A program made the translations under genes and the position numbers. This document shows, piece by piece, positions 6,148-36,342 of a stretch of 56,874 bases of DNA (its first letter is position 1; every line of letters starts with the position of its first letter). Where the stretch lies: IMG/VR virus record IMGVR_UViG_3300020472_000030, positions 1 through 56,874 of that record, one strand, 5' to 3'. The DNA comes from a virus (Duplodnaviria; Caudoviricetes). Below the pieces are notes generated by a model. It was not told where the DNA came from. It made no database searches and saw nothing but the letters and a program-made list of their open reading frames with translations.

Positions 6148-6171
6148 AAAGCCTCCACATTTTGAATATAT

Positions 6172-6210
6172 ATTATACTAGAAATACATACAAATGTCAA
6201 GAACTATTTT
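6172..6210 (-). promoter_or_regulatory. sigma70-type phage promoter
   Basis: AAAATAGTTC-TTGACA-N17-TATAAT. Confidence 0.85.
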
Positions 6211-7562
6211 TAGATGTCGTTAATTTCTTCGCCAGTTTTCTGGTCATTGTCCTCTTTCTCGCTTGGCGTAAGTGCAGTATCTGGTCCTATCTTTAGGGTT
6301 TCCCAATCCATGGTCGAGGAAAAATCACGCATAGCGGCTGCTCTCATTTTTACACATTTAAATGTCATACAGGCATCTTCCTGTGACCAAGGTTCCATAG
6401 CATATGCCGCATCAGCAGCATCTAGAATACCTTTGGCAAATCGAGCTTCACCGCTAGCGTCAGTTTGGTATGGCGAGAATACTGGGGTTTCGTACTCTTG
6501 TGCCATACCTTTCAGTGCTTTACTAACTTCTATCTGTTCGGTCCAATCGTATTGACCTCCCCGAGAGGGCATACTTGAACGTTTTACTTGATTGATGTAG
6601 TCGACAATAATGACTCCTACATTCATTTTACTTTTAACTTTCTTATCAAGTTCAGCTCGTATTTTAGCGAGAGTAAGAGAGGGGTCATAAATTACATCAA
6701 GCTGTTGAGTTGGGAGAAGCTCACAACTATTTATTAATTTATCATGGAACTTGTCAAAGTCTCGATGTTCCCGATACTCTGCAAGTCTCTCTTGACTATC
6801 ACTGTATCTTGCGGCTTGCCAGTTAGCAACCTTTTCCCATTCAGTAATACTGAGGTTCTTTGTGCGAAGCCTAGAAAAAGACACGCCCGTAGCAATAGAG
6901 CAACATCTTTGCAATATTGCTCTACTGTCCATTTCAATAGTAAAATAGAGGGCGGATTTACCGGAAGAATATACGTTGTTAGCTATATTAGCACATGTTA
7001 TGGATTTCCCTGCCCCTCTACGACCACCCACAAGGATCAAGTCTCGGGGGGAGAACGTGATCTCATGATCGTGGTCAGCATTTAAGCCGAGGGGCAGGTA
7101 CTTACCTATATCATCATCTGGCTCCCACAAGGGAATACGTTGCATAGTCTCTTGCGGTTCTTGAAGGTCGACTTTTTCTTCAACATCAAGAACTATCTGG
7201 TGCAGATGTTTGACAGACTCTTCTGCATCTTCAAAAGATATAGAATTGTCAACATAGTCCTCAAGTGAGTCAAGGATTTCCTTTTGTGTAAACTCATTCT
7301 TGAGGTACTGTAGAAGCATGTAAGGATCTGCATCTACTTCGACCGAATCTACAGCAAAGAGTAACTCTTTTGTAGATGTGTCACGAATCTCATACTTGAG
7401 ATCCTCAATCGTAGGGAGTCGATGAAATTTTTCACAATGCGTATCAATTACTTTAAAAAGCGTATGGTATGCAGAGGGCAAATAATGCTTACGAGTGTTA
7501 GACCAAGACTCAAAGTCCTGCAGGTCTAATACTTGCTTAATATAAGCACTTGCTATGTTCAA
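6210..7562 (-). CDS. DnaB-like replicative helicase
   Basis: GGRRGAGKS Walker A, FTIEM, IIVDYINQ, ILDAAD. Confidence 0.92.
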   Translation of the reverse strand: MNIASAYIKQVLDLQDFESWSNTRKHYLPSAYHTLFKVIDTHCEKFHRLPTIEDLKYEIRDTSTKELLFAVDSVEVDADPYMLLQYLKNEFTQKEILDSLEDYVDNSISFEDAEESVKHLHQIVLDVEEKVDLQEPQETMQRIPLWEPDDDIGKYLPLGLNADHDHEITFSPRDLILVGGRRGAGKSITCANIANNVYSSGKSALYFTIEMDSRAILQRCCSIATGVSFSRLRTKNLSITEWEKVANWQAARYSDSQERLAEYREHRDFDKFHDKLINSCELLPTQQLDVIYDPSLTLAKIRAELDKKVKSKMNVGVIIVDYINQVKRSSMPSRGGQYDWTEQIEVSKALKGMAQEYETPVFSPYQTDASGEARFAKGILDAADAAYAMEPWSQEDACMTFKCVKMRAAAMRDFSSTMDWETLKIGPDTALTPSEKEDNDQKTGEEINDI

Positions 7563-7580
7563 CGATTCCCCCGATAGAAA

Positions 7581-7612
7581 TATAGCCGCAATGACCCCTC
7601 ACTACGGCTATA
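7581..7612. terminator. intergenic hairpin (terminator or processing site)
   Basis: TATAGCCG...CGGCTATA inverted repeat. Confidence 0.5.
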
Positions 7613-7625
7613 AAATCAATACTAA

Positions 7626-8357
7626 TTAAGATGCTGCTGCTTTTTCCTTTTTAGCTGCACCATCATAGTCAGACGCTGTCAAACCTCTTCGGGTCAACAT
7701 AGTCTTAACACCGCGTGCAGTTTTGCCAATCGACTCTGCGATTGCTTCAACTGTCATGCCAGAAACATCTCCAAGTTCCTCAAGAGGATCGCTCTTGTTA
7801 GAGCCCTTGGTGTGCTCCTGACGGGGTATTGCATCAATATCACCAGAACGCAACAGGCTGAGAGCCTTGCCACGTACGCTATTTACGCTACGATCTAGAG
7901 CTTCTGCAATCGCCTCAACGAAAGCACCGTCATTAACCATAGATACGAACTTAGCTTCCTCATCGGGAGAGTAAGTTCTAACAGTCTCCACTTTGGGAGC
8001 TGGCTTAACATGGTCAGTAAGTTCCATAGAAAGGATCTTACCTTGGATAGACTTAGCACTAAATGCTCCGTCTTCGAAGTTAGAAGCAATCTGAGCATAG
8101 GTATACTCACCGCTATTGTCTGTGACAAAAGCAGAAAGGGTAGCTTCTTGAGCTTCAGAAAAAGCACGAGTGCTCTTTGCAGAAGCAAGTTCTACGTCAA
8201 AACCCATTTTTCTCAGTTTGCTAGAAACTGACCGTGTAGTAGTCTCAAGCTGGTCTGCAGCTTCTGCTACAGTAGCTTGTGATACTGGGGATTCATCACC
8301 GACGAAATTAGTGAGCTCGTCGGTACGCTCATCTGTCCACTTAGGCAACGTTGCCAT
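7626..8357 (-). CDS. T5 D5-like DNA-binding protein (tandem HTH repeats)
   Basis: Four repeated helix-turn-helix-like units; position between ligase and helicase as in T5. Confidence 0.8.
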   Translation of the reverse strand: MATLPKWTDERTDELTNFVGDESPVSQATVAEAADQLETTTRSVSSKLRKMGFDVELASAKSTRAFSEAQEATLSAFVTDNSGEYTYAQIASNFEDGAFSAKSIQGKILSMELTDHVKPAPKVETVRTYSPDEEAKFVSMVNDGAFVEAIAEALDRSVNSVRGKALSLLRSGDIDAIPRQEHTKGSNKSDPLEELGDVSGMTVEAIAESIGKTARGVKTMLTRRGLTASDYDGAAKKEKAAAS

Positions 8358-9111
8358 TATAGTCTCCTATCAATTCATTTAGACTTGTAATAATTGTTAT
8401 GCCCTTTTCTCGGGCTTGTTTTGTTTTTGCAGATTCTATGCCTGATTCATTTACTAAGAATATTACATCCTTAGCCATAGTTGCTTTTACTTGGTATCCT
8501 GCATAAGACAGGGCTTTTGTAGCATCTGCTTTAGTTTTGAAACTCGAAAGCTTACCACTAATACATACCGCTCCTTTGGTTTCAGTTGCGACTCTAGAAG
8601 CTTCAAATTCCCAGCTAAAGGGAAGGTCATTTAAACCACATTGAAACTCATCGTAGTACCAGCGAAGTAAGTTTTCCGTTGCTTTCGGCCCTAGACCTGC
8701 TGCTTTACACTTGTCCTCATCAATGTCAATGATATTCTTGAGCTTTGTGGACAATTTAGTTGCTGCCGTCTTTCCTATTAAAGGAATACTAAATGCTGGT
8801 AATAAAACATTCAAACTACTGTTCTTAGAATGATCTATTTCAACTACTAGCTTTTTTGCTAGTTTTTCAGAGGCAAGAGCATATTTACAAGTATTATAGT
8901 CTAAACTATAAATTTCGTGAAAGTTAGAAAGATCCAACTTTTCTATGCTCTTGGGGCCAAGCCCTTTGATCTTTAGGGTCTTTGCAAAATGCTCTATCCG
9001 TTTCTGGATTTGTGCAGGACACAAAGAGTTAACGCAATATAGCAAATCGTTTTGCCACTCAAGTGAGCTTTCACAAGAGGGACAAAATTCCGGTGCTTCT
9101 ATTGCCTGCAT
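8341..9111 (-). CDS. NAD-dependent DNA ligase subunit B (Zn finger, HhH, BRCT)
   Basis: CPSC..C..CP, IKGLG, C-terminal BRCT (VCISGKL...AKTKQAREKGI). Confidence 0.92.
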   Translation of the reverse strand: MQAIEAPEFCPSCESSLEWQNDLLYCVNSLCPAQIQKRIEHFAKTLKIKGLGPKSIEKLDLSNFHEIYSLDYNTCKYALASEKLAKKLVVEIDHSKNSSLNVLLPAFSIPLIGKTAATKLSTKLKNIIDIDEDKCKAAGLGPKATENLLRWYYDEFQCGLNDLPFSWEFEASRVATETKGAVCISGKLSSFKTKADATKALSYAGYQVKATMAKDVIFLVNESGIESAKTKQAREKGITIITSLNELIGDYNGNVA

Positions 9112-9137
9112 AAAGATTCCTCTGAAATTGAAAACAT

Positions 9138-9177
9138 ATTATACGAAAATTTAGGTTCCATGTCAAGAATTATTTTT
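9138..9177 (-). promoter_or_regulatory. sigma70-type phage promoter
   Basis: AAAAATAATTC-TTGACA-N17-TATAAT between ligase subunit genes. Confidence 0.85.
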
Positions 9178-10120
9178 CCTCAACTCGTCGGACAATACGA
9201 GGAATAATTTCACCGCTTCGTATGACCTCGACTTGGCAACCAATTTCAAGACCTAACTCCTCAATGTGAGCCATATTGTGTAAGGTTGCTCTCTGAACAA
9301 GTGCATCCCCAATCATAACAGGGCTAAGTATTGCTACTGGTGTAACAACACCTGACTTACCTGTTTGCCACTCAACTCTCGATAGCGTGGTTACTACACC
9401 TTCTTTTTGAATTTTAAAGGCAAGCGACCCTCTAGGGTGATGAGAAGTAGAACCTTGTTTAGTCCAATATTCAATATTATCTATTCTGTATACTTCGCCA
9501 TCGGTTGGGTACTGTGACGCATCAACTGAGTTAACAGTTGAAAAACCAAGACTCTCTAACCAATTAAGAAGTACGCTCCAAGACTCGATAAATCCATGCG
9601 GTCTTAGCTCATATGCAACAAACCGTAGTTCATTACAACGAGGTATAAAGTCCCTAACTAATTTTAAGTTAAGCGACCCCGCCGCATAGTTACGAGCATT
9701 AGGTATAGAACTAGGAGCAACTACTTCGCCATCAATTTGTATTTTTTTATGAAAGTTGATGGTCTCTGGAACTAAATAGCTCATCTTATTTGAGATATCT
9801 ACTCCTATTTTTCCGTTTCCACGGGTAGTTGCTCTTACAAATTTCCCCTTATCGTATAATATTGATACTGCCGAACCATCCAACTTTGGACTAGAAATAA
9901 CTTCTTGGCCTTCATGTGAAGCGATCCAAGAACCTAATTCATCCTCGTCAAAAGTCTTTTTAAGTGACAGCATTGGAAATGAATGACGTACTCCATTATC
10001 TGGAGTATAACCTACAATTTCATCCTCATACAAGGCGTCCCACTCGGCGTCAGTTAAGGCACTGTCACCACCTTCGTAGTACATTCTCGCTGCTGATTTT
10101 TTGTTGGTATTCTCATTCAT
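9170..10120 (-). CDS. NAD-dependent DNA ligase subunit A (adenylation + OB)
   Basis: KLDG, TRGNG, NARNYAAGSL, RATLHN, RSGEIIP. Confidence 0.95.
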   Translation of the reverse strand: MNENTNKKSAARMYYEGGDSALTDAEWDALYEDEIVGYTPDNGVRHSFPMLSLKKTFDEDELGSWIASHEGQEVISSPKLDGSAVSILYDKGKFVRATTRGNGKIGVDISNKMSYLVPETINFHKKIQIDGEVVAPSSIPNARNYAAGSLNLKLVRDFIPRCNELRFVAYELRPHGFIESWSVLLNWLESLGFSTVNSVDASQYPTDGEVYRIDNIEYWTKQGSTSHHPRGSLAFKIQKEGVVTTLSRVEWQTGKSGVVTPVAILSPVMIGDALVQRATLHNMAHIEELGLEIGCQVEVIRSGEIIPRIVRRVEEK

Positions 10121-10129
10121 ATAAGATAT

Positions 10130-10167
10130 ATTATACTAGAAAATAAGGGTTAAGTCAAGAAAAATTT
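10130..10167 (-). promoter_or_regulatory. sigma70-type phage promoter
   Basis: TTGACT-N17-TATAAT, 9 nt before ligase ATG. Confidence 0.8.
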
Positions 10168-10170
10168 AAA

Positions 10171-10479
10171 CTAATCAGGTAAATAAATTGATTTTATTAA
10201 GTCTTGAAAGTTTTCTTCAATTATTTGTTTCGACTCGGCTAAGGATAGTATCTCAGTGAGGGCACGAAACAGCTCTCTGGTGTTGTTAAAGTCGATGGGC
10301 ATTGCAATTCCATCAGGTGTAGGCTTCCATTCTTCATCAAAATCCATGTAATACTTCCTAAGATGAAGGTACTCAATACCACGAAAAGTACTAACGACCA
10401 CTCGTATTTGGGTTTGTTTTTCTTCGTCATAATGAATTACATGCTCATAGACTGCCGGTGCTTCATATATCTGTATCAT
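10171..10479 (-). CDS. PC4/p15-like ssDNA-binding protein
   Basis: FRGIEYLHLRKYY..EWKPTPDGI motif. Confidence 0.85.
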   Translation of the reverse strand: MIQIYEAPAVYEHVIHYDEEKQTQIRVVVSTFRGIEYLHLRKYYMDFDEEWKPTPDGIAMPIDFNNTRELFRALTEILSLAESKQIIEENFQDLIKSIYLPD

Positions 10480-10742
10480 ACTTCATTCTTCAATACAGAT
10501 GACAAGGGCACAACACTGGTCACATTCTTAGGTTTTAACAAACGATAAGAATCCGTATCCCAGCAAAACAACAGCAGGGTTTCTTCGGATTCTTTCGCTC
10601 GATTTTTCTTGCCTTTGATATACTCGGTGCTAAAGTCTAAGGTACATACATTGTACTTTAACTTCTTTGAGTTCTCACTACGATAGGTAATGATTGCATC
10701 ACCACAATCGTTGACAAGATTGGCTAGTTCGTCCTTTTTCAC
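10476..10742 (-). CDS. conserved T5-like hypothetical protein
   Basis: AGGAG RBS, GTG start; synteny with the T5 D-gene cluster. Confidence 0.75.
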   Translation of the reverse strand: MKKDELANLVNDCGDAIITYRSENSKKLKYNVCTLDFSTEYIKGKKNRAKESEETLLLFCWDTDSYRLLKPKNVTSVVPLSSVLKNEV

Positions 10743-10794
10743 GACGCTCCTTAGTCAGGTAGGTAAAATCTTTTACTGCCCTACACATTGGAGC

Positions 10795-10823
10795 AAAAAA
10801 TACCTCGGGGGTTTCACCCGAGG
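10795..10823 (-). terminator. rho-independent terminator
   Basis: CCTCGGG/CCCGAGG stem followed by T-run on minus strand. Confidence 0.75.
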
Positions 10824-10829
10824 GAAGCA

Positions 10830-11174
10830 CTAGTCAGCCATTAGGCCCGCAAAGTATTGTGCGGCTTTGCCAGTCATTTTGGATATAATATCCATGTCTG
10901 GCTCTAAGCCCTTGTCTGTAATAGCAGCTACTAATGAGTCTTGTGCTGCCTGCTTAGAAACTCGAGAGCCACCTGTAGAAGCTCCCCCATTCCCAGTTGC
11001 TTGAGCCTTTTTTACATAGACTCCAGCTTTTGTCAAAATCATACGAACCCCGTTTGGGCTTTCCTGAAGTTCGTCTGCTATTTCTTTTACTATCTCCATT
11101 GAAGTTTCAGGAGTTGGATCCTGTGCTTCATACATCTCTACGGCTTGCGCCTTTTTGTCGTCATCCCACGCCAT
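10830..11174 (-). CDS. T5 D3-like DNA-binding protein
   Basis: GAGG RBS before MAWDDDKK; SPNGVRMILTKAGVYVKK HTH-like segment; synteny. Confidence 0.75.
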   Translation of the reverse strand: MAWDDDKKAQAVEMYEAQDPTPETSMEIVKEIADELQESPNGVRMILTKAGVYVKKAQATGNGGASTGGSRVSKQAAQDSLVAAITDKGLEPDMDIISKMTGKAAQYFAGLMAD

Positions 11175-11250
11175 TTTGCGTTTTCCTCTTGTTTGTTGTT
11201 GCTGGAAATAAAATCGGTCGCCCATTGGTTTCCTCATTTTTAATAGTAGT

Positions 11251-11290
11251 ATTATCTCACGAATTAACGTTTGTGTCAAGAACTTTTTTT
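11251..11290 (-). promoter_or_regulatory. promoter, extended -10 class
   Basis: TTGACA-N17 with TGA-GATAAT. Confidence 0.7.
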
Positions 11291-11298
11291 GCTTTGCC

Positions 11299-11949
11299 CT
11301 AGATTTTTTCGAGATTAATTCCGTGTTCTTCTAGGTGAGTTAATTTTCCTAAATCACAGGCTAATGAGGCTGCATAATACCCACCTTTTACAAGTTCCTC
11401 GGTGTTTTCAAGTACATATATATAGTAACACTTACTTGAATACTTTTTCATGTAGTCTATTTCACCTGCTTCTTTTTCTACTAATGCAGGTGAATGATAA
11501 AAAGCAGACCAGACAGTTTCTCCTGCACTAAATTCTTCGGATACACATTGATCTGGTAAAAATGCATAACCTTTTCGATCTTCTATTGCAGCAGGTCGTG
11601 TTGGTACTCCTACTCTATCAAGGATACCTTTTACAAACCCTGCAGAACGATACATACTTTGAGAAATTTCAGAAATAGACTCGCCCCGTAGGTACGACTG
11701 TATTGCGTCTTTTATCTCTCCTATAGTTGCTCTTGTACCTTTTAGTTGTGCTTTTCGTTTGGCTTTGTACTCGTTTCGTTCATTAAACTCATCAAGAATT
11801 TTATTTAGACGGGTCGTGTTGTAGGAGATATTCAAAATCTCGCACGCTTCTTTTTTCGTTATTGGACGTTCCCCTGACAGCAGATTCATAACATGTTGAA
11901 TGTTTTCCTGTGTCAGTTTCTCGTGATCTTTCTTCTTCACTCTTGGCAA
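11299..11949 (-). CDS. T5 D2-like protein
   Basis: TKKEACEILNISYNTTRL HTH; synteny upstream of D3. Confidence 0.75.
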   Translation of the reverse strand: MPRVKKKDHEKLTQENIQHVMNLLSGERPITKKEACEILNISYNTTRLNKILDEFNERNEYKAKRKAQLKGTRATIGEIKDAIQSYLRGESISEISQSMYRSAGFVKGILDRVGVPTRPAAIEDRKGYAFLPDQCVSEEFSAGETVWSAFYHSPALVEKEAGEIDYMKKYSSKCYYIYVLENTEELVKGGYYAASLACDLGKLTHLEEHGINLEKI

Positions 11950-12226
11950 TTAATTCATCCTCCAATTTAAATAGTAAACAGCACATAGCATGAGCAAGGT
12001 GTGATAACCCCGTCTCTTCATCGTTTTCTTCCCCGTCTATATGTGCAAAGATATGCCTCAAAGCAGCACTTGTGTATCTGTTTTGTAGATCATCTACTTT
12101 ACGCCAATTTTCGGGATCGTACTTTTCCGCACCATAAGTAAGAACTTTTCCTACTTCTAATATGGATTTAGGAGGTAATAGGTACAACTTCGGTTTATCT
12201 CCATCATACTTTCTACCTTCGCTCAT
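11801..12226 (-). CDS. dATP/dGTP diphosphohydrolase-like protein (DUF5664 type)
   Basis: GRKYDGDK..L, YGAEKY..NW, RH, ETGLSHLAHA motifs. Confidence 0.85.
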   Translation of the reverse strand: MSEGRKYDGDKPKLYLLPPKSILEVGKVLTYGAEKYDPENWRKVDDLQNRYTSAALRHIFAHIDGEENDEETGLSHLAHAMCCLLFKLEDELIAKSEEERSRETDTGKHSTCYESAVRGTSNNEKRSVRDFEYLLQHDPSK

Positions 12227-12228
12227 GT

Positions 12229-12468
12229 TTACCCCCAAGGTAACAAGGTCATACCAATCATATTTAGTATAACCTCAATTAAAATAAAAAATATTAAGCC
12301 TACTCCTATCTGCCATGCCCACCACTTCCAGCCTTCTAAATTAGAAGCCCAAGTAGCTAATTTACTTTCTCTGGCTTTGTCATAGGCTCCACTCTTTTCA
12401 CCTATTCTTTCAGCCCAATAATTTGGACTAACTATGTTCTTTAGTCCTTTGAGTATTTTAACTATCAC
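12229..12468 (-). CDS. membrane protein
   Basis: C-terminal hydrophobic helix; coupled GTG start. Confidence 0.65.
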   Translation of the reverse strand: MIVKILKGLKNIVSPNYWAERIGEKSGAYDKARESKLATWASNLEGWKWWAWQIGVGLIFFILIEVILNMIGMTLLPWG

Positions 12469-12617
12469 CTTTTAGGCCGATACCAGTTTCTACATTGAAC
12501 CATATTATCAAATTCACCCGTTGAGACTCCCTGTCTGCAGGTTTCATTCAGTTCTTTATTGCCAGGCTCAAAAATTGCAACCACGGTTAAAACCCCAATA
12601 ATTATTAGATAATCCAT
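12465..12617 (-). CDS. 50-aa protein with N-terminal TM helix
   Basis: AAGGAG RBS; MDYLIIIGVLTVVAIFEPG...CRNWYRPKR; not in ORF track. Confidence 0.65.
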   Translation of the reverse strand: MDYLIIIGVLTVVAIFEPGNKELNETCRQGVSTGEFDNMVQCRNWYRPKR

Positions 12618-12632
12618 TTGTACTCCTTACTT

Positions 12633-13205
12633 TTACCGAGATATTCGTTGTTGGTAATCTGCTTCATCTTCACGCCACCAAGGTGGCTTGTCTCGGTACT
12701 TCCATGAAGCAAACGTTGCTTTATCTTTGTGATAAAATTTTCGGTATGATACTACTGCATCAACTCCTTTGAGTTCCTCAGGCATAGCTTGAGCGAAAGG
12801 TGTGAGTCCAATTCGTGGTATAGATAAGGGCTCGGGTAGCTTGAGTATGACGTCATGCACTGATCTATGGCTTTTACCGTATCGGTATCCATACTCATCA
12901 TTGAGTGCAGTTGCATAACAGTGTAACCACTCGAAATTATCCATGCTAGTACGACTCCAGATAGTACAAGGATGGTTGTGCATTGTAGGTAAGTAAGGGA
13001 AGTCCCTTGGCTCATTTTGTTTTTTCTCTCTTAATAAAGCTAACTGTTCCTTGGTCAGCTTCTTGGGTACATACCCTAAGTATTTATCAACCCACATATT
13101 TGTACAAAGCATTTGAGCCGCCTCTAAAGGCATTTTGACAATATGTTTGTCAACATGATACTCTGCACATCTATCATGGTTTTGGTCTAATATAAAGATA
13201 TTCAT
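12633..13205 (-). CDS. pyrimidine-dimer DNA glycosylase-like protein (DenV-related)
   Basis: MNIFILD..HVDKHIVKMPLEAAQML, HNHPCTIW, EYGYRYGKSH, FAQAMP. Confidence 0.8.
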   Translation of the reverse strand: MNIFILDQNHDRCAEYHVDKHIVKMPLEAAQMLCTNMWVDKYLGYVPKKLTKEQLALLREKKQNEPRDFPYLPTMHNHPCTIWSRTSMDNFEWLHCYATALNDEYGYRYGKSHRSVHDVILKLPEPLSIPRIGLTPFAQAMPEELKGVDAVVSYRKFYHKDKATFASWKYRDKPPWWREDEADYQQRISR

Positions 13206-13212
13206 AAGCTAC

Positions 13213-13689
13213 TTACTTTATTTCCTTAGCTTGACATGCCATTGCTTCAACCATAGGAAGTAAGTTTTTTGCAATTAAATTATGTTCCTTTAAAATATCA
13301 AGCGATACCATACGCATTGAACTTTGTTGCTCATAAATACGCTCTATAACTTTTTCCGTACAGACAGGCGAAGGTTCAATTTGATACGTGTCAGCTATTC
13401 GCTCCTTAATCTCTAATTCGTTAGCTACTGCTATTAGTTTCTTTTTTAGTGCAGCTCCTTTGGTTAATTGCTCTGATACTCTCCAATCTGTTACTTTCTG
13501 AATAAATTGAGTAATAGTAGAATGTTTTTCACCCATCTTTAAATGTCGTTGTACAAGATTCTGCTGTTCATAAGTCCATACTAACTTAAGCATTTCTTCC
13601 AGAGTTACTTTAGAGTAGCCTTCTCTCTCATTCTTTTGTGCGACTGTCAGTGCACCCAACAGTATGTTTAACGTCTCTTCGTGTTTCAC
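13213..13689 (-). CDS. hypothetical protein
   Basis: GGAG RBS, 158 aa. Confidence 0.65.
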   Translation of the reverse strand: MKHEETLNILLGALTVAQKNEREGYSKVTLEEMLKLVWTYEQQNLVQRHLKMGEKHSTITQFIQKVTDWRVSEQLTKGAALKKKLIAVANELEIKERIADTYQIEPSPVCTEKVIERIYEQQSSMRMVSLDILKEHNLIAKNLLPMVEAMACQAKEIK

Positions 13690-13749
13690 CGTGAAACTCC
13701 TTATAATAATTCCGTGAAAATTAGATTAAAAATTAATCTTTCAACATAT

Positions 13750-13787
13750 ATTATACGGTAAAATAACCTCAATGTCAAGAACTTTTG
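13750..13787 (-). promoter_or_regulatory. sigma70-type phage promoter
   Basis: GTTC-TTGACA-N17-TATAAT. Confidence 0.85.
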
Positions 13788-13809
13788 ATAAAGTGGGGGA
13801 GTAGTTTCT

Positions 13810-14484
13810 CTAGTTATTCTCTTTATCTACCGCTTTTCGAACAGTTGGAAAATGTGTTCCTATAACATCCCAGCACTTTTTAGCTATATTAGCGTGTTCT
13901 TGTTGTGTCCCATTAGCCGTTCTCAGCCCACAATAATGGATCCAACTACGTAATGTTCCCGCCATATAGAGAGTAGTACCTGTCATTCCTTCTGGTAATA
14001 CTGCTCTTGCTTGTTCTTTTGCGATACCTGCTTTTAAGGCTGCCTCATATGCTTCTCTAGCAGTTTGCAATACAGCCGCTTGATTCATAGAGAAGTCTTC
14101 ATTAACACGCCTATGGTACTCATCTTCATAGTCTAGTCCGATGCTGTTTTGTCTATTTTTTTCGTCTTGCAGGCGTGATTCTCGTATTTCAAACGTATCA
14201 CTTACAGCATAGCGCTGGCTAAACTCTTGAAAAGAAAAACTTCGGTGACGTACTATTTGGTGGGAAATATCTCTTGTGGTCTGAATCTCCATAGTAAGAG
14301 ATACCATCTCAAAAGGACTCCAATGTCCGTGTTTGATTAAGTACGCTAACAGCTGAGAGGCTGTCTTTTTATTGTTTTGGTTATTAGGATTACTTACTCT
14401 TGCACAGTAAGCTATAAATTCATCAGCCGAAGAACAGTCTGTAATTGCCGACGGCTTGCTTAGAGCTACTAAAGCTACATTCAT
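13810..14484 (-). CDS. thyX: flavin-dependent thymidylate synthase
   Basis: HWSPFE, RHRSFSFQEFSQRY, EQARAVLP. Confidence 0.97.
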   Translation of the reverse strand: MNVALVALSKPSAITDCSSADEFIAYCARVSNPNNQNNKKTASQLLAYLIKHGHWSPFEMVSLTMEIQTTRDISHQIVRHRSFSFQEFSQRYAVSDTFEIRESRLQDEKNRQNSIGLDYEDEYHRRVNEDFSMNQAAVLQTAREAYEAALKAGIAKEQARAVLPEGMTGTTLYMAGTLRSWIHYCGLRTANGTQQEHANIAKKCWDVIGTHFPTVRKAVDKENN

Positions 14485-22001: not shown

Positions 22002-22370
22002 TTAAGAAATAGCTGCTAAAAGCTTTTCCAAGTCACCGAAGCCAGCCTTGTTTAGGCTTGCGAACTCAACATTGAGTTGCGCTTCGATTTGTGCTACCAA
22101 ATCAGCTTTTCTCACCTGAGGTGGACGCTTGGTAGGCTTAGCTTGGGCAACGTATACACCCAGAGCAGAGAGCTTAGCGATAACACTTCGCTCAGTTTTG
22201 TCAAAGTCCAACGCGAGTTGATTAACAGTAACGCGAGTTGGGTTAGCTTCATAAGCTGAAACCATGCTGTCGATAACTTCCTGAGGGTAGTTATTGCTTT
22301 TGTTTGCTGTCATAGTCATATTAGGTCTCCCGATCCCAAAAAATTTATTTAATGTTGCTCTCAATTTCAT
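22002..22370 (-). CDS. T5 A2-like DNA-binding protein (paralog 2)
   Basis: NYP...SVIAKLSALGVY...FASLNKA; alternative RBS-led start at 22319. Confidence 0.7.
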   Translation of the reverse strand: MKLRATLNKFFGIGRPNMTMTANKSNNYPQEVIDSMVSAYEANPTRVTVNQLALDFDKTERSVIAKLSALGVYVAQAKPTKRPPQVRKADLVAQIEAQLNVEFASLNKAGFGDLEKLLAAIS

Positions 22371-22376
22371 AATACT

Positions 22377-22415
22377 ATTATCTCATCAAAAAGCGGTCAT
22401 GTCAAGATATTTTTT
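22377..22415 (-). promoter_or_regulatory. promoter, extended -10 class
   Basis: TTGACA-N17 with TGA-GATAAT. Confidence 0.7.
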
Positions 22416-22814
22416 CCATTTCCTCCACATTTTTTTCTCCGCTTTTCGTGCTTCCACTTCCCAAGGAGCGCTCCAATAGTCTCCTTGAAACGACTTGCCC
22501 TTGAACATAGCAGGTCTACCTAAATCCAGTCCATCAAACTCATACTGCTTAACGTGAGTCATTTCGTGGAATACGGTCATAAGCGTCAGCCTATCACTAT
22601 AGCGATCAGATATACGAATTACATACTCATCGTCTAGTTGAAACGCATCACCAAATGCACTTTTAAATCGAGTGAGTACAATGGTAAGCCTATCACTAGC
22701 GATTGTTAAATCCCATAATCCGTACTGATCTACTGCCCAACAGGCTGCTCGATTCACGAGATCGCGCCTATGTGACGGCCAATAGCCTTTTTTAAATTTG
22801 GTTTTTATTCGCAT
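22386..22814 (-). CDS. zinc metallopeptidase-like protein
   Basis: HEMTH (HExxH) and downstream PWEVEA. Confidence 0.8.
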   Translation of the reverse strand: MRIKTKFKKGYWPSHRRDLVNRAACWAVDQYGLWDLTIASDRLTIVLTRFKSAFGDAFQLDDEYVIRISDRYSDRLTLMTVFHEMTHVKQYEFDGLDLGRPAMFKGKSFQGDYWSAPWEVEARKAEKKMWRKWKKYLDMTAF

Positions 22815-22838
22815 GTTATTTCCTTAATTTCTGGATAT

Positions 22839-22867
22839 ATTATATAAGCAACAGCATCTGTTGTCAA
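22839..22867 (-). promoter_or_regulatory. sigma70-type promoter
   Basis: TTGACA-N17-TATAAT. Confidence 0.8.
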
Positions 22868-23022
22868 ATAAATTTGCGCCTAATCGTGAAAAAAACGCAA
22901 GGGAATTCCGGGGGGCCGCGCGCGGGGTCGTGAAGTCAAGTAATTTTCGCACATTTGCTGCAATTTTCATCAATTTTCGGCGGGGATGAGCAGACTTCCC
23001 GAATTATAAAGAATTTTGTGCG

Positions 23023-23236
23023 ACCCCGCAAAAATTTCTTGACATGCGTCGCTTTTGCACGTATACTGGCGCGGGGACGCTTCGGTTTTGCACTCTGGCG
23101 CAGGAAGACCTGGGAAAGTTAAAAAAATTTGGTCCACACCCGCAAAAAAGACTTGACATTCTTCGCTTTTGCACTTATTATGGCGCGAGCAACACCATTT
23201 AAATACTACTTCACTTTCGCACTGGCGCCCGCGCGC
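23023..23236 (+). repeat. imperfect direct repeat (period 114 bp), each unit with a promoter-like sequence and TTTYGCAC/TGGCGC motifs
   Basis: CCCGCAAAAA..CTTGACAT..TCGCTTTTGCAC.TAT..TGGCGCG near 23025 and 23139. Confidence 0.8.
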
Positions 23237-23314
23237 CAAAAATCTGGATTTTTCAAGATTTTTCGAGGGGCTGGAGGCCGCATTTTTAAAGGGCTGTAGA
23301 GCAGGGTCGCGGCA

Positions 23315-23330
23315 TGTTTCACGTGGAACA
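23315..23330. promoter_or_regulatory. parS: parS site (chromosomal ParB-binding palindrome)
   Basis: TGTTTCACGTGGAACA; reverse complement TGTTCCACGTGAAACA matches the consensus TGTTNCACGTGAAACA exactly. Confidence 0.75.
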
Positions 23331-23927
23331 AACCGCGCAGAGTAGCTGTAATAATCGCGTGATTCCTTTTTGCTTATCATTGTAGTTGACAGTATGCCAA
23401 TCCTCGCCTACCACGCGCTCTTTTAATAGTGTCATGCGGTCATAGTGAGAAAGCGCATTTTCGTCATTTTGCGAAAATTTCCAGTAAGTAAGCGGTGAAA
23501 TTTTTCGCGCTTGTATTCGCTTTTTTTGTTCCGCTTCAGAAATCGAGAGCCAGAATTTAATGAAAGTGACATCGTGTTGAACCTCATTTTCCCAGTATTC
23601 GTATCTGTCTAAAAAAGCGTTGTATTGGTTTTGAGAGCACCAGCCATTCATATGTTGAACCATCGCGCGGCTATACCATGATCGGTCATAAAAAACGATT
23701 TGACCTTGCGCGGGCATTTTTCCGTTCCACCATTGCCACCAATTAGCCATTGCGGTAACGGATGGCTTTGTTGATGGCACGATGCTATACCATGCCGGAT
23801 TTAAGTATTCGGTAACTGCCCGAATTGTTGAAGATTTTCCGGCGGTATCGCGTCCCTCTAAAACGACAGCGATTTTATTTTTGTTCGCTTCCGCGATTTG
23901 GTTTAATTGTGCTTGTAATTTTTTCAT
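23319..23927 (-). CDS. ppk2: polyphosphate kinase 2
   Basis: LEGRDTAGKS, FYDRSWY, IKFWLSISEAEQ..R, WKFSQND; ATGA-coupled start at 23927. Confidence 0.93.
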   Translation of the reverse strand: MKKLQAQLNQIAEANKNKIAVVLEGRDTAGKSSTIRAVTEYLNPAWYSIVPSTKPSVTAMANWWQWWNGKMPAQGQIVFYDRSWYSRAMVQHMNGWCSQNQYNAFLDRYEYWENEVQHDVTFIKFWLSISEAEQKKRIQARKISPLTYWKFSQNDENALSHYDRMTLLKERVVGEDWHTVNYNDKQKGITRLLQLLCAVCST

Positions 23928-24481
23928 AGTGCATAACCTCGTTCCTCTGGATTTTCTAGTGGTAGTGGACAACCGTGTATTCCGGTTTTTCGTTTCCAGT
24001 TTACAATTTCTAAGCCAAGCGCACGATTTGCTTTTCTGTGAGCATTTGCAAATTTTACCTTTGCCAATTTTACCGGCATATTGAAAAATTCGCTGTGACC
24101 TCCAACCGGATTTTTTGTCGTTTTCAAATCGCGGAATAATCCAGCAAGCCGATATTTTTTATTCGCTTTGTGGAAATATTGTTCGCTAGAAAGTGTCTCG
24201 TCAAATGTGCCAGTAGTCAGCGCAAGCAATTCAGCGCGAAGCGAACCTTCCGGCAAATTGTGACATTCTTCTATATTGCGTAATGTCTCAATTAAGCGAG
24301 ATTCAACGCCAGAAAAACCGCCAGCGCGACAGTATTTAGCAAAGCCGTTTTTTATAACGGTCATATTCCGAAACGCTGGAACGTGTTTGCCAAGTCCGTG
24401 TAATTTCCATAGATAGTTAAAACCGAAATCGTCAAATGGCGATCCATCTATTGAGTTTGGTGAGTGTGTAGATTTAAGCAT
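23924..24481 (-). CDS. hypothetical protein
   Basis: 185-aa coupled ORF. Confidence 0.75.
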   Translation of the reverse strand: MLKSTHSPNSIDGSPFDDFGFNYLWKLHGLGKHVPAFRNMTVIKNGFAKYCRAGGFSGVESRLIETLRNIEECHNLPEGSLRAELLALTTGTFDETLSSEQYFHKANKKYRLAGLFRDLKTTKNPVGGHSEFFNMPVKLAKVKFANAHRKANRALGLEIVNWKRKTGIHGCPLPLENPEERGYAL

Positions 24482-24950
24482 TTTTTTGTGCCTCGTTATA
24501 ATTAGTAGGATTATAGCATCGAATACCGAAACCAGTCAAGCATTGTCGAACGCTATTATTATCATCAAACATATAAGCATTTGAGCGAATCCATGCGAGC
24601 GATTTTCTCATATCAACGCGCAATTTTAAAATCATGCGTTTTTTAAGAATGTCATCCGGTGTAGTGTCACCAAATGCGCGGCTATAAATATAGTCATATT
24701 CTAGCGCGTTATCTTGCAAAAATTTTAAATCTGCTTTTCCGATAACTCTAGCGGTCATGATTGCGATTTGATCCCGTTCGCGGTTAATCGTTTTCCATGA
24801 ATCCGCCAAAGGTAGGAGCGAATCAAGCGCGATTTTTTCGGGCGTGTTATTCTTAATCCAATCCGCGAGATTAAGAGAGCCATCGGGCAGAGTATTCTGG
24901 CGATGGCTTGAGTCGATGGCAGTACCATCTAAGTCAAAAATAAAGAGCAT
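24474..24950 (-). CDS. HAD-family phosphatase
   Basis: FDLDGT, MTAR, conserved K, FDDN motifs I-IV. Confidence 0.88.
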   Translation of the reverse strand: MLFIFDLDGTAIDSSHRQNTLPDGSLNLADWIKNNTPEKIALDSLLPLADSWKTINRERDQIAIMTARVIGKADLKFLQDNALEYDYIYSRAFGDTTPDDILKKRMILKLRVDMRKSLAWIRSNAYMFDDNNSVRQCLTGFGIRCYNPTNYNEAQKNA

Positions 24951-25137
24951 ATAAGTATCCTATAATTCCAATCGTATTAAGTATCATTAAGTTATATAGC
25001 TTACAGGAGTGCGCTTGCAAAGTCAACAAAGCCAATCCAGATATAGCTAACAATTTTCCGATAGTTGAGTCAATTAGGAAGGGAGCGACTGCCATGCAGA
25101 CAGTCCCAACCCAAGCCGAGAAAGTAATGAGCATCAA
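24934..25137 (-). CDS. small multi-TM membrane protein
   Basis: Three hydrophobic segments; coupled start. Confidence 0.7.
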   Translation of the reverse strand: MMLITFSAWVGTVCMAVAPFLIDSTIGKLLAISGLALLTLQAHSCKLYNLMILNTIGIIGYLYALYF

Positions 25138-25424
25138 GCGATGCTCATTAGTAAGGCAGACAAGGAGCGAGTAGTCGCACCTTCCAAACCATCGAGATTT
25201 TCGCCCTGTAGAGCGTTCTCGATAGCTTCCACCAATTCTTTTTTGGTGGATTTTGCAGAAGCATTTTTTGCTTCTGGCTTCTGGTACAAGCCGAGAAGCA
25301 CAGCTTTTGAGATGACGGAACGAACCGACAAACCAAATTCTGAAGCGAGAGAATCCGCGACAGTGCGAGTGATGGGAGCCGAATCCATCATTTGAGCGAC
25401 CATTTTTTCAGTATAGTTAGACAT
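25134..25424 (-). CDS. T5 A2-like DNA-binding protein (paralog 3)
   Basis: AGGAG RBS; NYT...SVRSVISKAVLLGLY...LDGLEGAT. Confidence 0.7.
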   Translation of the reverse strand: MSNYTEKMVAQMMDSAPITRTVADSLASEFGLSVRSVISKAVLLGLYQKPEAKNASAKSTKKELVEAIENALQGENLDGLEGATTRSLSALLMSIA

Positions 25425-25876: not shown

Positions 25877-25916
25877 AAAAATTGTTCTTGACATTTAATG
25901 TCATTTTTAGTATAAT
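25877..25916 (+). promoter_or_regulatory. sigma70-type late-region promoter
   Basis: AAAAATTGTTC-TTGACA-N17-TATAAT. Confidence 0.85.
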
Positions 25917-25923
25917 TTTTTAC

Positions 25924-27450
25924 ATGGCAACTTATCGAGCGACTTTTACTCTCCCACAATATCAAGGCGGAACTCCTGGGCACTATCCTATAGTAGATGG
26001 AGGTACTTATGACCTCTATGCAGGGAATACTCAAGTTAATAGTGAGGTGTATGCTCCTGGACTAACGATGTATTTCAAAGATAGTGATAGTGTTGGGGTA
26101 ATCGTAAATCATGGAGGAGCAGGTTCTAATACTTCTATAATGTATAATGACACCGGTTTCCAAGACGAGCCCGATCCTACTAGCCCGTCAGGTCTAGGAG
26201 CACAAGCTAGCGGCACTACATGGAGCAGAACTTGGGACGATGAAGATGACTATACCATGAATTGGTGGTGGTGGGGAAATAATGATTCAACCACCGCCTA
26301 CTATACTGGTAGAGCCCAATTTCAAAGAATAGAATGTACTGCCGGCGGCTTAGGAAGTAGTAATGTCGCTCAAGGTTCTACCCTTACAATTACTCCCACT
26401 ATAAAGACTGCATTAAGTGGAAGTTCAATGCTTACTGCTAGTGGTTCTAATGGTCACAAATGTTTTTTAAAGATATGGACTACAACAAGTAATGGCTCGG
26501 TTATAAATTTACCTATTCATACAACAGGTACCAACGGCTTTACTTGGTCTAATAGTGGTAGTTCTACTGGTTTTATCAGAAGCACTAATACATCGGACAC
26601 AGTTACCGTAGGGTCAGGAGTAGCCACAGGAAAGTATAGAGTTACAGTCTGTCACTATAACCCTTTTAGTACTTCAACTTCGGGAGATAAATATACCAAT
26701 CCTTATTATGGTTTAGACCAAAATATGGGTAGTTTTGTTTTTGATGTAGTTGAGCCTAGTGATAGTACTCCTAATGACATTGATTTGCGATATTCTGCTT
26801 CCACCAATAATGTTACAGGGGCTGGGGGCGGAAATACTTTTCAAACAGAAAATGCTCCTTTAACGGGGTTTAACCAAACTGTTACTCCCACCATTACAGG
26901 AGGAGAATACCAAGTTAATAGTGATGGAAATTGGTGGAGTACACAAGGTAATAGAGATACGGTAGTAACAGGCGACTATATTAGAGTTAGGGGAGTTGCA
27001 AGTACTACATATGGAGGTGTAACAAGTGTTGTCCTAACTATTGGTTCTATGACCGAAACATGGACAATAACTACAGAAAGCGATCCAGGTGGTGGGGGCA
27101 CAGGCACAGGGGGCGCAGGTTCAACCAATTACGGGTTAATAGTTTATAATAGCGATGGGGACGAAGTAATTTTTGGGCCTAACCAAAGAGCCATGCATGT
27201 ACTGGGTCATAGTTCTAGTAGTATTAGTATTGGACCTTCTACCACATACGGTAGTTCAACACTTACTCCTGTAGAAGGAATGACAACTAATAATCAAGAC
27301 ACAATAGGAGTCCTTGTAGGAGGTACTCCAATAGTATCTTCATTCGGTCAATTATTAACAATTACCTATTATAATGGGTATTTTACTATTAGAAATAATT
27401 CAACTACTCTTACTTTAGCCGATATAAGATGGTATGCAATAAGGTATTAA
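25924..27450 (+). CDS. putative receptor-binding/tail-tip protein
   Basis: G/S/T-rich beta protein at the T5 pb5-equivalent locus; C-terminal YGLIVYNSDG domain; ATG 25924. Confidence 0.65.
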   Translation: MATYRATFTLPQYQGGTPGHYPIVDGGTYDLYAGNTQVNSEVYAPGLTMYFKDSDSVGVIVNHGGAGSNTSIMYNDTGFQDEPDPTSPSGLGAQASGTTWSRTWDDEDDYTMNWWWWGNNDSTTAYYTGRAQFQRIECTAGGLGSSNVAQGSTLTITPTIKTALSGSSMLTASGSNGHKCFLKIWTTTSNGSVINLPIHTTGTNGFTWSNSGSSTGFIRSTNTSDTVTVGSGVATGKYRVTVCHYNPFSTSTSGDKYTNPYYGLDQNMGSFVFDVVEPSDSTPNDIDLRYSASTNNVTGAGGGNTFQTENAPLTGFNQTVTPTITGGEYQVNSDGNWWSTQGNRDTVVTGDYIRVRGVASTTYGGVTSVVLTIGSMTETWTITTESDPGGGGTGTGGAGSTNYGLIVYNSDGDEVIFGPNQRAMHVLGHSSSSISIGPSTTYGSSTLTPVEGMTTNNQDTIGVLVGGTPIVSSFGQLLTITYYNGYFTIRNNSTTLTLADIRWYAIRY

Positions 27451-34128: not shown

Positions 34129-34412
34129 CAGAAAAGAAAAAACTACACGAAAAACATAGGATGTTAGCCTTGAAATACTTTGCAGAAACTTCTGTTAAGC
34201 AAGGGTATCTTATAAGCAAGGAAGAGGCATTAAAAACCAAATGGATGGATGCATCTTATCTTGATGATGAGGTTTGGTTTGATACATGGGAAGATATCAT
34301 AAAGTCTATGAAGTCTATCTTTACTGAAACTATGGATCTGAAACCAAAAGCCAAAGCAGCCCCTAAAGTTACAAAGGCTGACTCAGGAGGAAAGGATGGA
34401 AAAAGTATTTAA
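34125..34412 (+). CDS. hypothetical protein
   Basis: Coupled ORF between portal and protease. Confidence 0.65.
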   Translation: MTEKKKLHEKHRMLALKYFAETSVKQGYLISKEEALKTKWMDASYLDDEVWFDTWEDIIKSMKSIFTETMDLKPKAKAAPKVTKADSGGKDGKSI

Positions 34413-36342
34413 TTTAACCTCTACTTTTAAGTCCCATACTGATGAGGATGGAAGTATAAAAATCCGAGGTATGGCTAGTACTGCCGATTTTGATCGCGCG
34501 GGTGATTCTATTTCAGCAGATGCATGGACTAAAGGTGGGTTAAATAATTTTGAAAAGAATCCTATAATTCTTTTCAACCACGACTACAATAGGCCTATTG
34601 GAAGAGCTACTAACGTTAAAGCTACTGATAATGGTCTTGAGTTAACAGCAAAAATTAGTAAGGCGGCTAAAGATGTAGCCGAACTAGTTAAAGACGGTGT
34701 TCTTGGGGCCTTTTCTGTTGGTTTCCGAGTCAAGGACGCTGATTATATCGAGGAAACCGACGGATTGAGAATAAAGGACGCTGAATTGTTCGAGGTATCA
34801 GTAGTATCTGTGCCCTGTAATCAAACAGCTACTTTTTCACTGGCGAAGTCTTTTGACTCTATGGATGAGTACGAAGACTTCAAAAAAACTTTCACTAATA
34901 GTGACGGGGCGCAAGTCCAAAAGGAGATAACGATGTCTGAAGAGACACAACAACCCGTTGACTTGGAAGCTTTTGCTAAAAAAGTAGCTGAGGAAACTGC
35001 TGCTAAAATTGCAATGAAGCAAGCCGAGCAAAAAGCAGCCGATGAGGCTGTACAAAAAGAAGCTGAAGAGAAAGCTGCTGCGGAAGCAGACGCCAAAGTT
35101 CAGCAAGAAGAAGAGGTCAAGACGGCCATTAAAACTGGCGTAGAGTCAGGAGCTGATCGTCTTGTACAAGACATGCAAAAAGAATTCGAAGCTGCAAAAG
35201 CTGAAGAAATCAATGAGCTTGTTAAGAAGTACGAAGCCGACGTTAAAGAGAAGGCTGATGAACTCGAAGCTATGCGTAGCCGTAAGTTTGAATTTGCTAA
35301 GCAAAGCAAGCAAGAAGTTGGTAAAGAAGCTCTTCATGCTAAAGTACTTGGTGCAATTACTAAAAAAGGTTGGGATACTGACCTTGGTAAGGAAGTCATG
35401 GAAAAGCAGGGCTTAGACTTTGGTACACGAAGTTCTGCCGGTAATCTCGATATTACTGTAACTCAAGCGTTCGAAGAAGAAGTTGCACTCGAAACTAAAC
35501 TTGCGGGCTTGTTCCGTGAAATTCCTGTAACTTCTGGAGCCACAGTAATGCCTTTTGCTGCAGATGTTAATGCTGCAACTTTTGGTACCGCTTATGATAT
35601 TGATACTGCTAGCACACGTATGGATACAGTTGGTGGAACTGACGGTCAGTATGATATTACTAATAATGTACTACAAACTGAGCGTTTGGCAGCAGGTACC
35701 TACATTGATAACAATGTAGACGAAACTTCTTTAGTTTCATTCCTGCCAATGATTACCTCAGCTCTTGCACGCTCTCATGCGGTAGCAATTGATAAGGCAA
35801 TCTTATACGGTACTTCTGGACCTACTCTTGGTATCGCTGGTGGAACCGGAAGCGACAAAGGCACTGGTCTTACAGCGTCAACCGCAGCTTGTGCAGCCCA
35901 GCTTGATGGTGCACCTGTATTCGCAGACTCAATGCTTGAAGTTGGTCGTGCAGCTATGGGCAAATACGCAGTTAATCCTGCTGATATTGTCTATGTTGTT
36001 ACTATCGATGCATACTACGATCTACTTGCAGCAGATGGAAACTTCAAGACTGTAGATAAAGTTGGTTCTGATGCGGCAGTTAATATTAACGGTATGATGG
36101 GTTCTGTTTATGGTTCTCCTCTTATTGTTTCAGCAGAACTTGCTCCTGCTAACCAAGGCACAGTTGCTTGTATCATTAATACTAGCCGCTTTGTTGTAGG
36201 AAGACTCAAAGCTGTAAGCATTGAAACTGACTACGAAGTTGGTAAGCAGCGAAATGTTCTGGTCGCTAGCCAGGCATTAGGATTTAAGGCGCTTGAAGGC
36301 ACTTCTGGTGCTCACACCTTAACCCTAGCAGCTAACGCTTAA
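34396..36342 (+). CDS. prohead protease - major capsid protein fusion ORF
   Basis: HK97 protease motifs (LFNHD, FSVGF, EVSVVSVP), coiled-coil delta domain, HK97-fold capsid; internal RBS+ATG at 34933. Confidence 0.93.
   Translation: MEKVFNLTSTFKSHTDEDGSIKIRGMASTADFDRAGDSISADAWTKGGLNNFEKNPIILFNHDYNRPIGRATNVKATDNGLELTAKISKAAKDVAELVKDGVLGAFSVGFRVKDADYIEETDGLRIKDAELFEVSVVSVPCNQTATFSLAKSFDSMDEYEDFKKTFTNSDGAQVQKEITMSEETQQPVDLEAFAKKVAEETAAKIAMKQAEQKAADEAVQKEAEEKAAAEADAKVQQEEEVKTAIKTGVESGADRLVQDMQKEFEAAKAEEINELVKKYEADVKEKADELEAMRSRKFEFAKQSKQEVGKEALHAKVLGAITKKGWDTDLGKEVMEKQGLDFGTRSSAGNLDITVTQAFEEEVALETKLAGLFREIPVTSGATVMPFAADVNAATFGTAYDIDTASTRMDTVGGTDGQYDITNNVLQTERLAAGTYIDNNVDETSLVSFLPMITSALARSHAVAIDKAILYGTSGPTLGIAGGTGSDKGTGLTASTAACAAQLDGAPVFADSMLEVGRAAMGKYAVNPADIVYVVTIDAYYDLLAADGNFKTVDKVGSDAAVNINGMMGSVYGSPLIVSAELAPANQGTVACIINTSRFVVGRLKAVSIETDYEVGKQRNVLVASQALGFKALEGTSGAHTLTLAANA

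Follow-up and report, generated by a model that had tools for sequence, protein, structure and literature searches.

This locus raises the question of why a lytic phage should carry a short DNA element of the kind that serves bacterial chromosomes as a centromere, and which protein would read it there. The window, meaning the whole stretch of viral DNA analysed (56,874 nt), contains TGTTTCACGTGGAACA at 23315-23330 on the + strand, which reads TGTTCCACGTGAAACA on the - strand. The reverse complement of TGTTTCACGTGGAACA matches TGTTNCACGTGAAACA, which we take to be the chromosomal parS consensus, a motif attributed to Livny 2007. The preliminary description had claimed a full 16-bp parS match at this place, and the match is indeed exact. 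There is one copy in the window, and no other 16-mer comes within three mismatches of it.

About 1e-4 exact 16-mers are expected in 57 kb by simple arithmetic, and the relatives described below keep the site between diverged flanks; both agree with the earlier judgement that a chance match is improbable. A shuffle test was weak, with two matches at three mismatches in 7/100 shuffles. Since a scan of approximately 250,000 windows still meets exact 16-mers by chance, the decisive evidence is conservation in relatives.

The window comes from a linear record with a CheckV completeness of 59%. Its leftward genes start at about 25.7 kb and its rightward genes at 25.9 kb, and a GC-skew switch at 23-26 kb of the window coincides with this switch of gene strand. 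The left arm encodes PolA, a DnaB-like helicase and NAD ligase, and the right arm TerS, TerL, a protease-capsid fusion, the major tail protein and the tape measure. Among cultured phages, the best matches are Demerecviridae of Vibrio, Pectobacterium, Aeromonas, Proteus and Escherichia, with identities of 49.5% for TerL, 43.7% for PolA and 28-35% for the protease/MCP. These values, together with the lytic gene set, are those of a distant T5-like siphovirus; a lytic T5-like phage had been proposed. No tRNA was found in the window, no tyrosine integrase in six records, and no DNA similarity of positions 22300-24500 to cultured phages. The 522-aa ORF at 25882-27450 has no match in cultured phages either, and is read as a tail fibre from its neighbour phrog_4912 alone. 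One relative, G008, is 100% complete by CheckV; the ORFs at its positions 779-6241 are repeated from 78673 up to the record end, so it is a circular-type assembly of approximately 77.9 kb. The clade is abundant and recurs globally in seawater, with 510 TerS relatives in IMG/VR.

In terms of conservation, 28 related viral contigs, the window counted, carry the site with at most one mismatch to TGTTYCACGTGRAACA. The Dmp-like proteins of these contigs are 43-83% identical to that of the window, with one outlier at 35% (L010). A search anchored on PPK2 returned 10 viral loci at 65-91% protein identity, nine of them with the site (six perfect, three with one mismatch at position 1 or 16); the tenth contig stops inside ppk2, short of the site's place. 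Across the six sequences in which the site lies over the ppk2 stop, the 16-mer is invariant and the 30 nt on each side have diverged.

A second sample was anchored on TerS and covered the best 80 of the 510 relatives (791,292 nt). It holds 13 sites at one mismatch or fewer from TGTTYCACGTGRAACA, all in the same neighbourhood, and 20 control palindromes made from shuffled halves gave 0 each in the same sequence. Four of these loci (L158, L159, L165 and L168) span the junction with no site even at three mismatches.

Alignment of 17 sites (16 distinct 66-mers) shows 12 of the 16 positions to be invariant (2-4, 6-11 and 13-15). Positions 5 and 12 vary only as Y/R, conservation is 80% or more at positions 1 and 16, and no flank column reaches 80%. 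The site carries 1.81 bits per position, compared with 0.42 and 0.36 in the flanks. The variable positions are presumably the degenerate positions of chromosomal parS. A change in the core (CATGTG) occurs in L283, whose close relatives L279 and L280 are intact. From this pattern, the proposal that the 16-mer is a cis-site kept by selection in an abundant, uncultured clade of marine T5-like phages is strongly supported.

The same data bear on two simpler origins, a chance match and a host parS that arrived with a captured ppk2 fragment. For chance one can point to at least 119 viral contig stretches that hold the exact motif; as chance alone is estimated to produce hits in a number of that order when a collection is this large, no enrichment figure follows from it. 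As for a passenger origin, the site lies at the end of ppk2 in the window. There, the PPK2 (polyphosphate kinase 2 family; PF03976, E 3.5e-42; 65-95% identity to relatives) is encoded at 23319-23927 on the - strand, within an ORF at 23319-23972(-) whose likely ATG is at 23927 (MKKLQA...). The gene ends in TGT TCC ACG TGA (C-S-T-stop), so that the stop codon and the last three codons fall within the parS-type site; the overlap with the ppk2 stop, a TGA, is as had been described.

This overlap is found in the window, L002 and L005-L008, and elsewhere the neighbours change. Next to ppk2 in the window lies the gene of p185, a conserved 185-aa protein (23924-24481, - strand) with no Pfam or PHROG match. 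L004 and L009 have the order swapped, with ppk2 before the p185 gene, and the site begins 1 nt (L004) or 119 nt (L009) past the p185 stop. In L176 it comes immediately after the stop of an unrelated 170-aa ORF, for which no Pfam family was found. In the case of G008, the site is intergenic, between the Dmp-like and 142-aa genes, with ppk2 approximately 3.5 kb away and p185 absent. L010 and L011 have no site at the operon end and carry TGTTTCACGTGAAACG inside ppk2 instead, where it arose by amino-acid changes from RI(Q/E)(A/K/E)RK(I/T/K)SP to RIVSRETSP. Records have one copy each, except G012 with two, 24 nt apart; the site is also doubled in L170. PPK2 itself was found in two of ten records (G008 and G012), the others being fragments that end near the site.

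Identity to the nearest cellular PPK2s, which come from alphaproteobacteria including Roseovarius, is only 33-40%, and none of six cellular PPK2 loci has the site at two mismatches or fewer. The site thus moves independently of ppk2 and keeps the edge of the repeat block without an adjacent ppk2, which answers the earlier concern that it was simply carried in with a host-derived ppk2 fragment. With conservation in 28 contigs between diverging flanks, and 0/20 control palindromes in the related loci, both origins are refuted, and we regard them as hardly credible.

As for p185, its AlphaFold model has a pLDDT of 73.2, and Foldseek found no PDB entry for it at E<=0.001. The highest-ranked rows (influenza polymerase) had a TM of approximately 0.12 and are meaningless.

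The parS-type site has a fixed place, at the edge of a promoter-repeat array. In the window, the array consists of two tandem promoter units at 23008-23073 and 23122-23187 on the + strand, with a 114-nt period and UP-like A/T tracts, convergent with ppk2. Their -35 to -10 spans, TTGACA-17-TATACT at 23039-23067 and TTGACA-17-TATTAT at 23153-23181, fire toward a GC hairpin and the parS-type site. The hairpin (GGCGC-N4-GCGCC, GGCGCCCGCGCGCC) at 23224-23237 closes the array, 77 nt from the site, so the site abuts a repeat block as was first noted. Homologous promoter units occur in 16 of the 19 related sequences searched. On the other side, a consensus sigma-70 promoter at 22839-22867 on the - strand (TTGACA-17-TATAAT, 12/12 matches) serves the leftward 142-aa/122-aa operon. 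Rfam gave no match at E<=1 for 22700-23500, which sets the promoter units apart from known RNA families.

The operon that converges on the array has the order p68 > A2-like p96 > p67 > Dmp-like > p185 > PPK2 on the - strand, with its 3' end at 23319. The Dmp-like protein (24474-24950, - strand) is a HAD phosphatase matching phrog_415 (E 2e-19), the family that T5 dmp, a deoxynucleoside-5'-monophosphatase, matches at 3.6e-57. At the head of the operon is a weak A2-like DNA-binding protein (25134-25424, - strand; phrog_1725, 1.2e-5 / 2.1e-8). A second weak A2-like protein (22002-22370, - strand; phrog_1725, 3.2e-4 / 4.9e-6) lies across the repeat block, where the first gene encodes the 142-aa protein (22386-22814, - strand), assigned by synteny and a match to phrog_10499, of unknown function, at 3.3e-12. 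The site thereby sits at the junction of an operon resembling the T5 pre-early one and a strong promoter array.

The distance between hairpin and site is 22-78 nt in 15 of the 17 sites measured, whatever gene lies on the other side; the two sites inside ppk2 are 244 and 252 nt away. Measured from the last + strand -35 box, the site is at 114-291 nt in 14 of the 16 cases with a box detected, and at 439 and 493 nt in the remaining two.

We then compared hairpin and site in a Dmp-anchored set of 85 sequences, made of 80 of 219 profile relatives, the window and four earlier loci. Twenty-seven have the site, all of them with the hairpin (GGCGC-N3-5-GCGCC) downstream. Eleven have the hairpin without the site, and 47 have neither, so that sites in hairpin-less sequences number 0/47, with the limit that 25 of these 47 extend less than 2.5 kb downstream of the Dmp-like gene. 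The 27 sequences and L004 make up the total of 28 site-bearing contigs. The preliminary description had named the presence of parS at the same locus in related genomes as a point to check, and this is the outcome: present in 28, absent from 11 that keep the hairpin. These 11 show the site to be dispensable.

A maximum-likelihood tree of the Dmp-like protein was built from 60 rows, with the 25 short hairpin-less rows left out. Site-bearing rows fill two clades, with hairpin-only rows nested among them. The site label changes 9 times on this tree, and well-supported branches force at least 7 of these changes, compared with a mean of 20.0 changes for shuffled labels (0/500 as low as 9). This distribution indicates that the site is old in the group and was repeatedly lost or regained. 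Its presence differs even between near-identical phages (L274 and L275; L325 and L216).

The fixed place invites a reading in which host ParB at the site acts locally, as sliding clamps or as a roadblock bound at parS, silencing, timing or insulating the promoter array and the convergent Dmp/PPK2 operon. Besides the short distances to hairpin and -35 box, this is suggested by the window, where two strong + promoters and the minus-strand operon converge on the site and a search for intrinsic terminator-like sites between the convergent units found none. RK2 offers a likeness, in that KorB is a ParB-family clamp at a palindromic site (OB) near promoters, and KorB and KorA bring about clamp-based silencing. 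KorB is plasmid-encoded with many OB sites, whereas here there is one site and the putative binder is a host ParB. Eleven relatives keep the same array and hairpin with no site, so the array works without it, and in most species chromosomal ParB silences only weakly. We therefore hold local action of this kind, which would resemble KorB-type long-range silencing or work as a protein terminator, to be unlikely on balance. Convergent transcription across the site may also hinder ParB loading.

With regard to the reader of the site, phage-encoded candidates were searched for directly. ParB_N (PF02195) had a six-frame hit at E<=1 in 0/11 records, comprising the window and 10 relatives including the complete G008. 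CbiA/ParA (PF01656) was found in 0/4 records, among them the window and G008. The statement that no parA or parB is present in the window is borne out by these searches and extends to the complete relative. Lacking a cognate parAB, the site is an orphan, and its binder comes from the host or belongs to another family. As the phages encode no ParB or ParA, host chromosomal ParB is the most likely reader. Searching six frames with Pfam could miss a divergent ParB or another phage protein of the same specificity.

Five cultured Demerecviridae (T5, three Vibrio phages and one Aeromonas phage) have no site at two mismatches or fewer, so the element is a trait of this uncultured lineage. As for the host, relatives were binned with MAGs of Gammaproteobacteria (4 loci), Bacteroidota (3), candidate-phyla bacteria (2), an archaeon (1) and a 'bacterium' (1), a scatter that names no host. 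In two marine MAGs with binned relatives, ParB occurs together with a near-consensus or perfect parS; all that this shows is that the canonical site is in use in such marine lineages. The sigma-70 promoters and the kinship with Demerecviridae suggest that the host is probably Gram-negative; the consensus type of the promoters and that kinship would favour a proteobacterial host.

A different reader has to be weighed as well. The 16-mer could be bound by a phage DNA-binding protein such as an A2-like paralogue, by the terminase at a genome end, or by an origin factor, its identity with parS being convergence. A2-like genes do flank the locus, the site is single as a cos, pac or ori site would be, and seven contigs end within approximately 500 nt of it (L002, L003, L005, L142, L176, L202 and L216). 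The tandem repeats account for these contig breaks equally well. Moreover, the 14-bp core is identical to universal parS and the variation falls at chromosomal-type positions, which makes convergence unlikely, and eleven relatives with the same genes and array are without the site, which would be odd for a packaging or origin site. We consider a reader other than ParB improbable.

Our preferred reading is that the 16-mer is probably a loading site for host ParB in marine T5-like phages, and some role through host ParB, whatever its nature, is at least as probable. After entry, host ParB-CTP dimers would load at the single phage parS, close as clamps and spread onto the neighbouring phage DNA. 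The resulting centromere-like complex on the phage genome could engage host ParA and/or SMC. Both the binder and these consequences are what we infer from the site and its setting.

A canonical parS by itself says nothing about benefit. The likeliest single one, which we put forward tentatively, would be positioning, retention or inheritance of the phage genome in slowly growing or dividing hosts, a carrier state comparable to that of phi29 with Spo0J. Control or insulation of the adjacent promoter array would come behind it as a less likely benefit. SMC-mediated organisation via host ParB seems quite improbable, and titration of ParB no less so.

In the last of these, replicating phage parS copies would act as a sink that strips ParB from the host origin region and disturbs segregation or division to the advantage of the phage. 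One site per genome would be enough for this, since repeated clamp loading at one site is part of the mechanism described in PMC12704722. Phage ParA and ParB were not found, which also fits. The fixed position beside the promoter array would be left unexplained, and the site is often lost in close relatives. Loss of parB has a mild effect in many bacteria, which likewise speaks against a sink, and we judge one to be decidedly improbable.

The preliminary description had placed the site at a putative first-step-transfer boundary and suggested that the phage may hijack host ParABS/SMC to pull in, position or silence incoming DNA, perhaps replacing A1-dependent second-step transfer. In a strong form of this idea, host ParABS/SMC pulls in or condenses the remaining genome in place of A1. 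Part of the setting stands. With its Dmp homologue and its weak A2-like gene, the operon that ends at the site resembles T5 pre-early DNA; like the first-step-transfer region of T5, the locus combines Dmp, weakly matching A2-family paralogues and strong sigma-70 promoters by a repeat-rich non-coding block. The kinship of Dmp and A2 is revealed only by PHROG profiles, and tblastx of T5 positions 1-14000 against the window gave nothing at 1e-3.

Other parts of the setting fit less well. T5 A2 matches phrog_1725 at 4.3e-52, and the strongest A2-like gene here (10830-11279; phrog_1725, E 7.8e-33) lies among the replication genes, approximately 12 kb from the site. A1, which in T5 falls in phrog_1745, is absent from the window, G008, G005 and G009, whereas the same search detected phrog_1745 in 5/5 cultured Demerecviridae as a positive control.

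The contrast between the window and G008 with parS and no A1, and T5 and four other cultured Demerecviridae with A1 and no parS, would suit a replacement. This idea is weakened by G009 (69% complete), which is without both site and A1, and by the frequent loss of the site, as in the 11 hairpin-bearing relatives without it. In addition, ParB clamps are not known to act as motors. The strong form is thus very unlikely, and the first-step-transfer framing as a whole is supported in part only. A wider reading, in which ParB-CTP clamps are a built-in infection step in this A1-less ocean clade, either as a host-supplied switch or insulator of the early array or as a condensing device for genome entry, positioning or retention in slow-growing cells, appears rather unlikely too, if less so.

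Among known systems, the closest to the preferred reading of a host ParB loading site is phi29, a virulent phage with five parS sites for host Spo0J that aid genome trapping in the spore (PMC2731898). Like the phages of this clade, phi29 carries host-type parS with no ParB of its own, and its genome is placed by way of the host's partition protein (PMC2731898). It has five sites where this clade has one, rarely two. It is a small protein-primed podovirus of a spore former with spore entrapment as the benefit, and the phage studied here is a T5-like seawater siphovirus of approximately 78 kb. The site of the present clade is also tied to a promoter-repeat array, unlike those of phi29.

Compared with the chromosomal ParABS centromere (tGTTNCACGTGAAACa), the phage element is the same 16-bp palindrome, with variation at positions 1, 5, 12 and 16 only and the single core change of L283. 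It differs from chromosomal parS in being an orphan with no parAB operon, in single copy, on a lytic phage genome. The plasmid-prophages P1 and N15 also have a centromere-like site on a phage genome (parABS/sopABC). They bring ParA and ParB genes of their own and rely on site sequences other than the chromosomal one; unlike these cassettes, no ParA, ParB or integrase was found here, and the site is of host type. The opposite arrangement to an orphan parS is seen in some phages with a ParB gene and no ParA, which are discussed in PMC10286716.

Within the literature searched, an orphan host-type parS is described neither for T5-like phages nor for other lytic phages of Gram-negative bacteria, in agreement with the preliminary description, whose author knew of none for T5-like phages. 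The phi29 case in sporulating Bacillus was the only precedent found for a virulent phage exploiting host ParABS through host-type sites. Here, the sequences themselves give evidence of selection for a trick of the phi29 type, in a phage lineage unrelated to it.

Chromosomal ParABS is treated as a host housekeeping system. If host ParB is indeed the reader, lytic marine phages may manage the positioning, inheritance or expression of their genomes via the centromere protein of the host, a possibility that touches on pseudolysogeny and on carrier states in oligotrophic oceans. That near-identical phages have lost the site again and again would then point to a host-dependent trade-off between cost and benefit, and the site could be a natural handle for ParB-based imaging of infection.

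Beyond this clade, ParB_N was absent from 15 of the 17 near-complete parS-bearing viral records sampled, in a collection so large that chance sites are expected. An orphan host-type parS may therefore be a general, overlooked feature of uncultured phage genomes.

Lastly, in terms of occurrence, near-identical DNA was found in 20 runs from 8 studies, dated 2014-2025, all of them labelled marine, seawater or marine-plankton metagenomes; two of the runs may come from the source sample. In one of these runs (X3) a single contig bridges 22833-24223 without a difference, and among the differences listed none falls within 23315-23330.

The exact parS sequence TGTTNCACGTGAAACA is present in more than 119 viral contigs (including L018-L097), with 3 to 5 copies in some of them. 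The ParB family domain ParB_N (PF02195) was found in 3 of 50 sampled records of parS-bearing viral contigs (G018-G067), and is absent from 15 of the 17 sampled parS-bearing records that are at least 90% complete. Single exact matches in so large a viral collection may be due to chance, and the occurrence across phages of orphan parS, meaning a site on a record without ParB_N, is worth a proper enrichment test. One perfect palindromic site is intergenic, at 894-909 of the viral contig L022 (record G020, 34,445 nt, in which ParB_N was not found), and a TTGACT-17-TATCAT promoter lies around 30 nt upstream of it. Two small proteins are common to this contig and the window, with 76% and 38% identity.

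Among relatives, L170 has two parS sites 24 nt apart (2367-2406), one perfect and the other mismatched at an outer position. In L283, the site at 5983-5998 carries the core mutation CATGTG, while it is intact in near-identical relatives. The doubled site and the core mutant look like natural variants of gain and decay.

Beside parS, strong sigma-70 promoter units are arrayed in tandem over 22815-23318 of the window, with homologous blocks in L004, L007, L139-L170 and other related contigs. Each unit is composed, in order, of an UP-like tract, TTGACA-17-TAnnnT, TGGCGC, about 45 variable nucleotides and CTACTACTGGCGC, and the hairpin GGCGC-N4-GCGCC closes the array. The number of units differs among relatives, from 1 to 3 or more. 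Rfam gave no match for the array, which may be a source of short RNAs, an RNA polymerase sink, or an origin or entry signal. Seven related contigs (L002, L003, L005, L142, L176, L202 and L216) terminate at the parS/repeat block or within about 500 nt of it; these ends could be assembly breaks at tandem repeats, a microdiversity hot spot, or a physical genome end.

Fragments of the clade (L222, L229, L247-L257) were binned in metagenome-assembled genomes of very different taxa, namely a Poseidoniales archaeon, Parcubacteria, Saccharibacteria, Bacteroidota and Gammaproteobacteria. This scattered placement is most likely mis-binning.

As for other genes of the window, p185, a 185-aa protein (23924-24481), is well conserved, with 51-92% identity among relatives and a GGHSEFFNM motif. 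Neither a family nor a fold match was found for it, and it may be a nucleotide-metabolism enzyme, given its placement between the Dmp-like phosphatase and PPK2 genes. The strongest homologue of T5 A2 (10830-11279; phrog_1725, E 7.8e-33) sits amid replication genes, outside the pre-early-like operon that ends at parS, and each genome of the clade carries 3-4 paralogues of this A2-like family. Finally, a single 648-aa ORF (34396-36342) matches both the head maturation protease (phrog_80) and the major head protein (phrog_617), whereas in cultured T5-like phages these are encoded by two adjacent genes.
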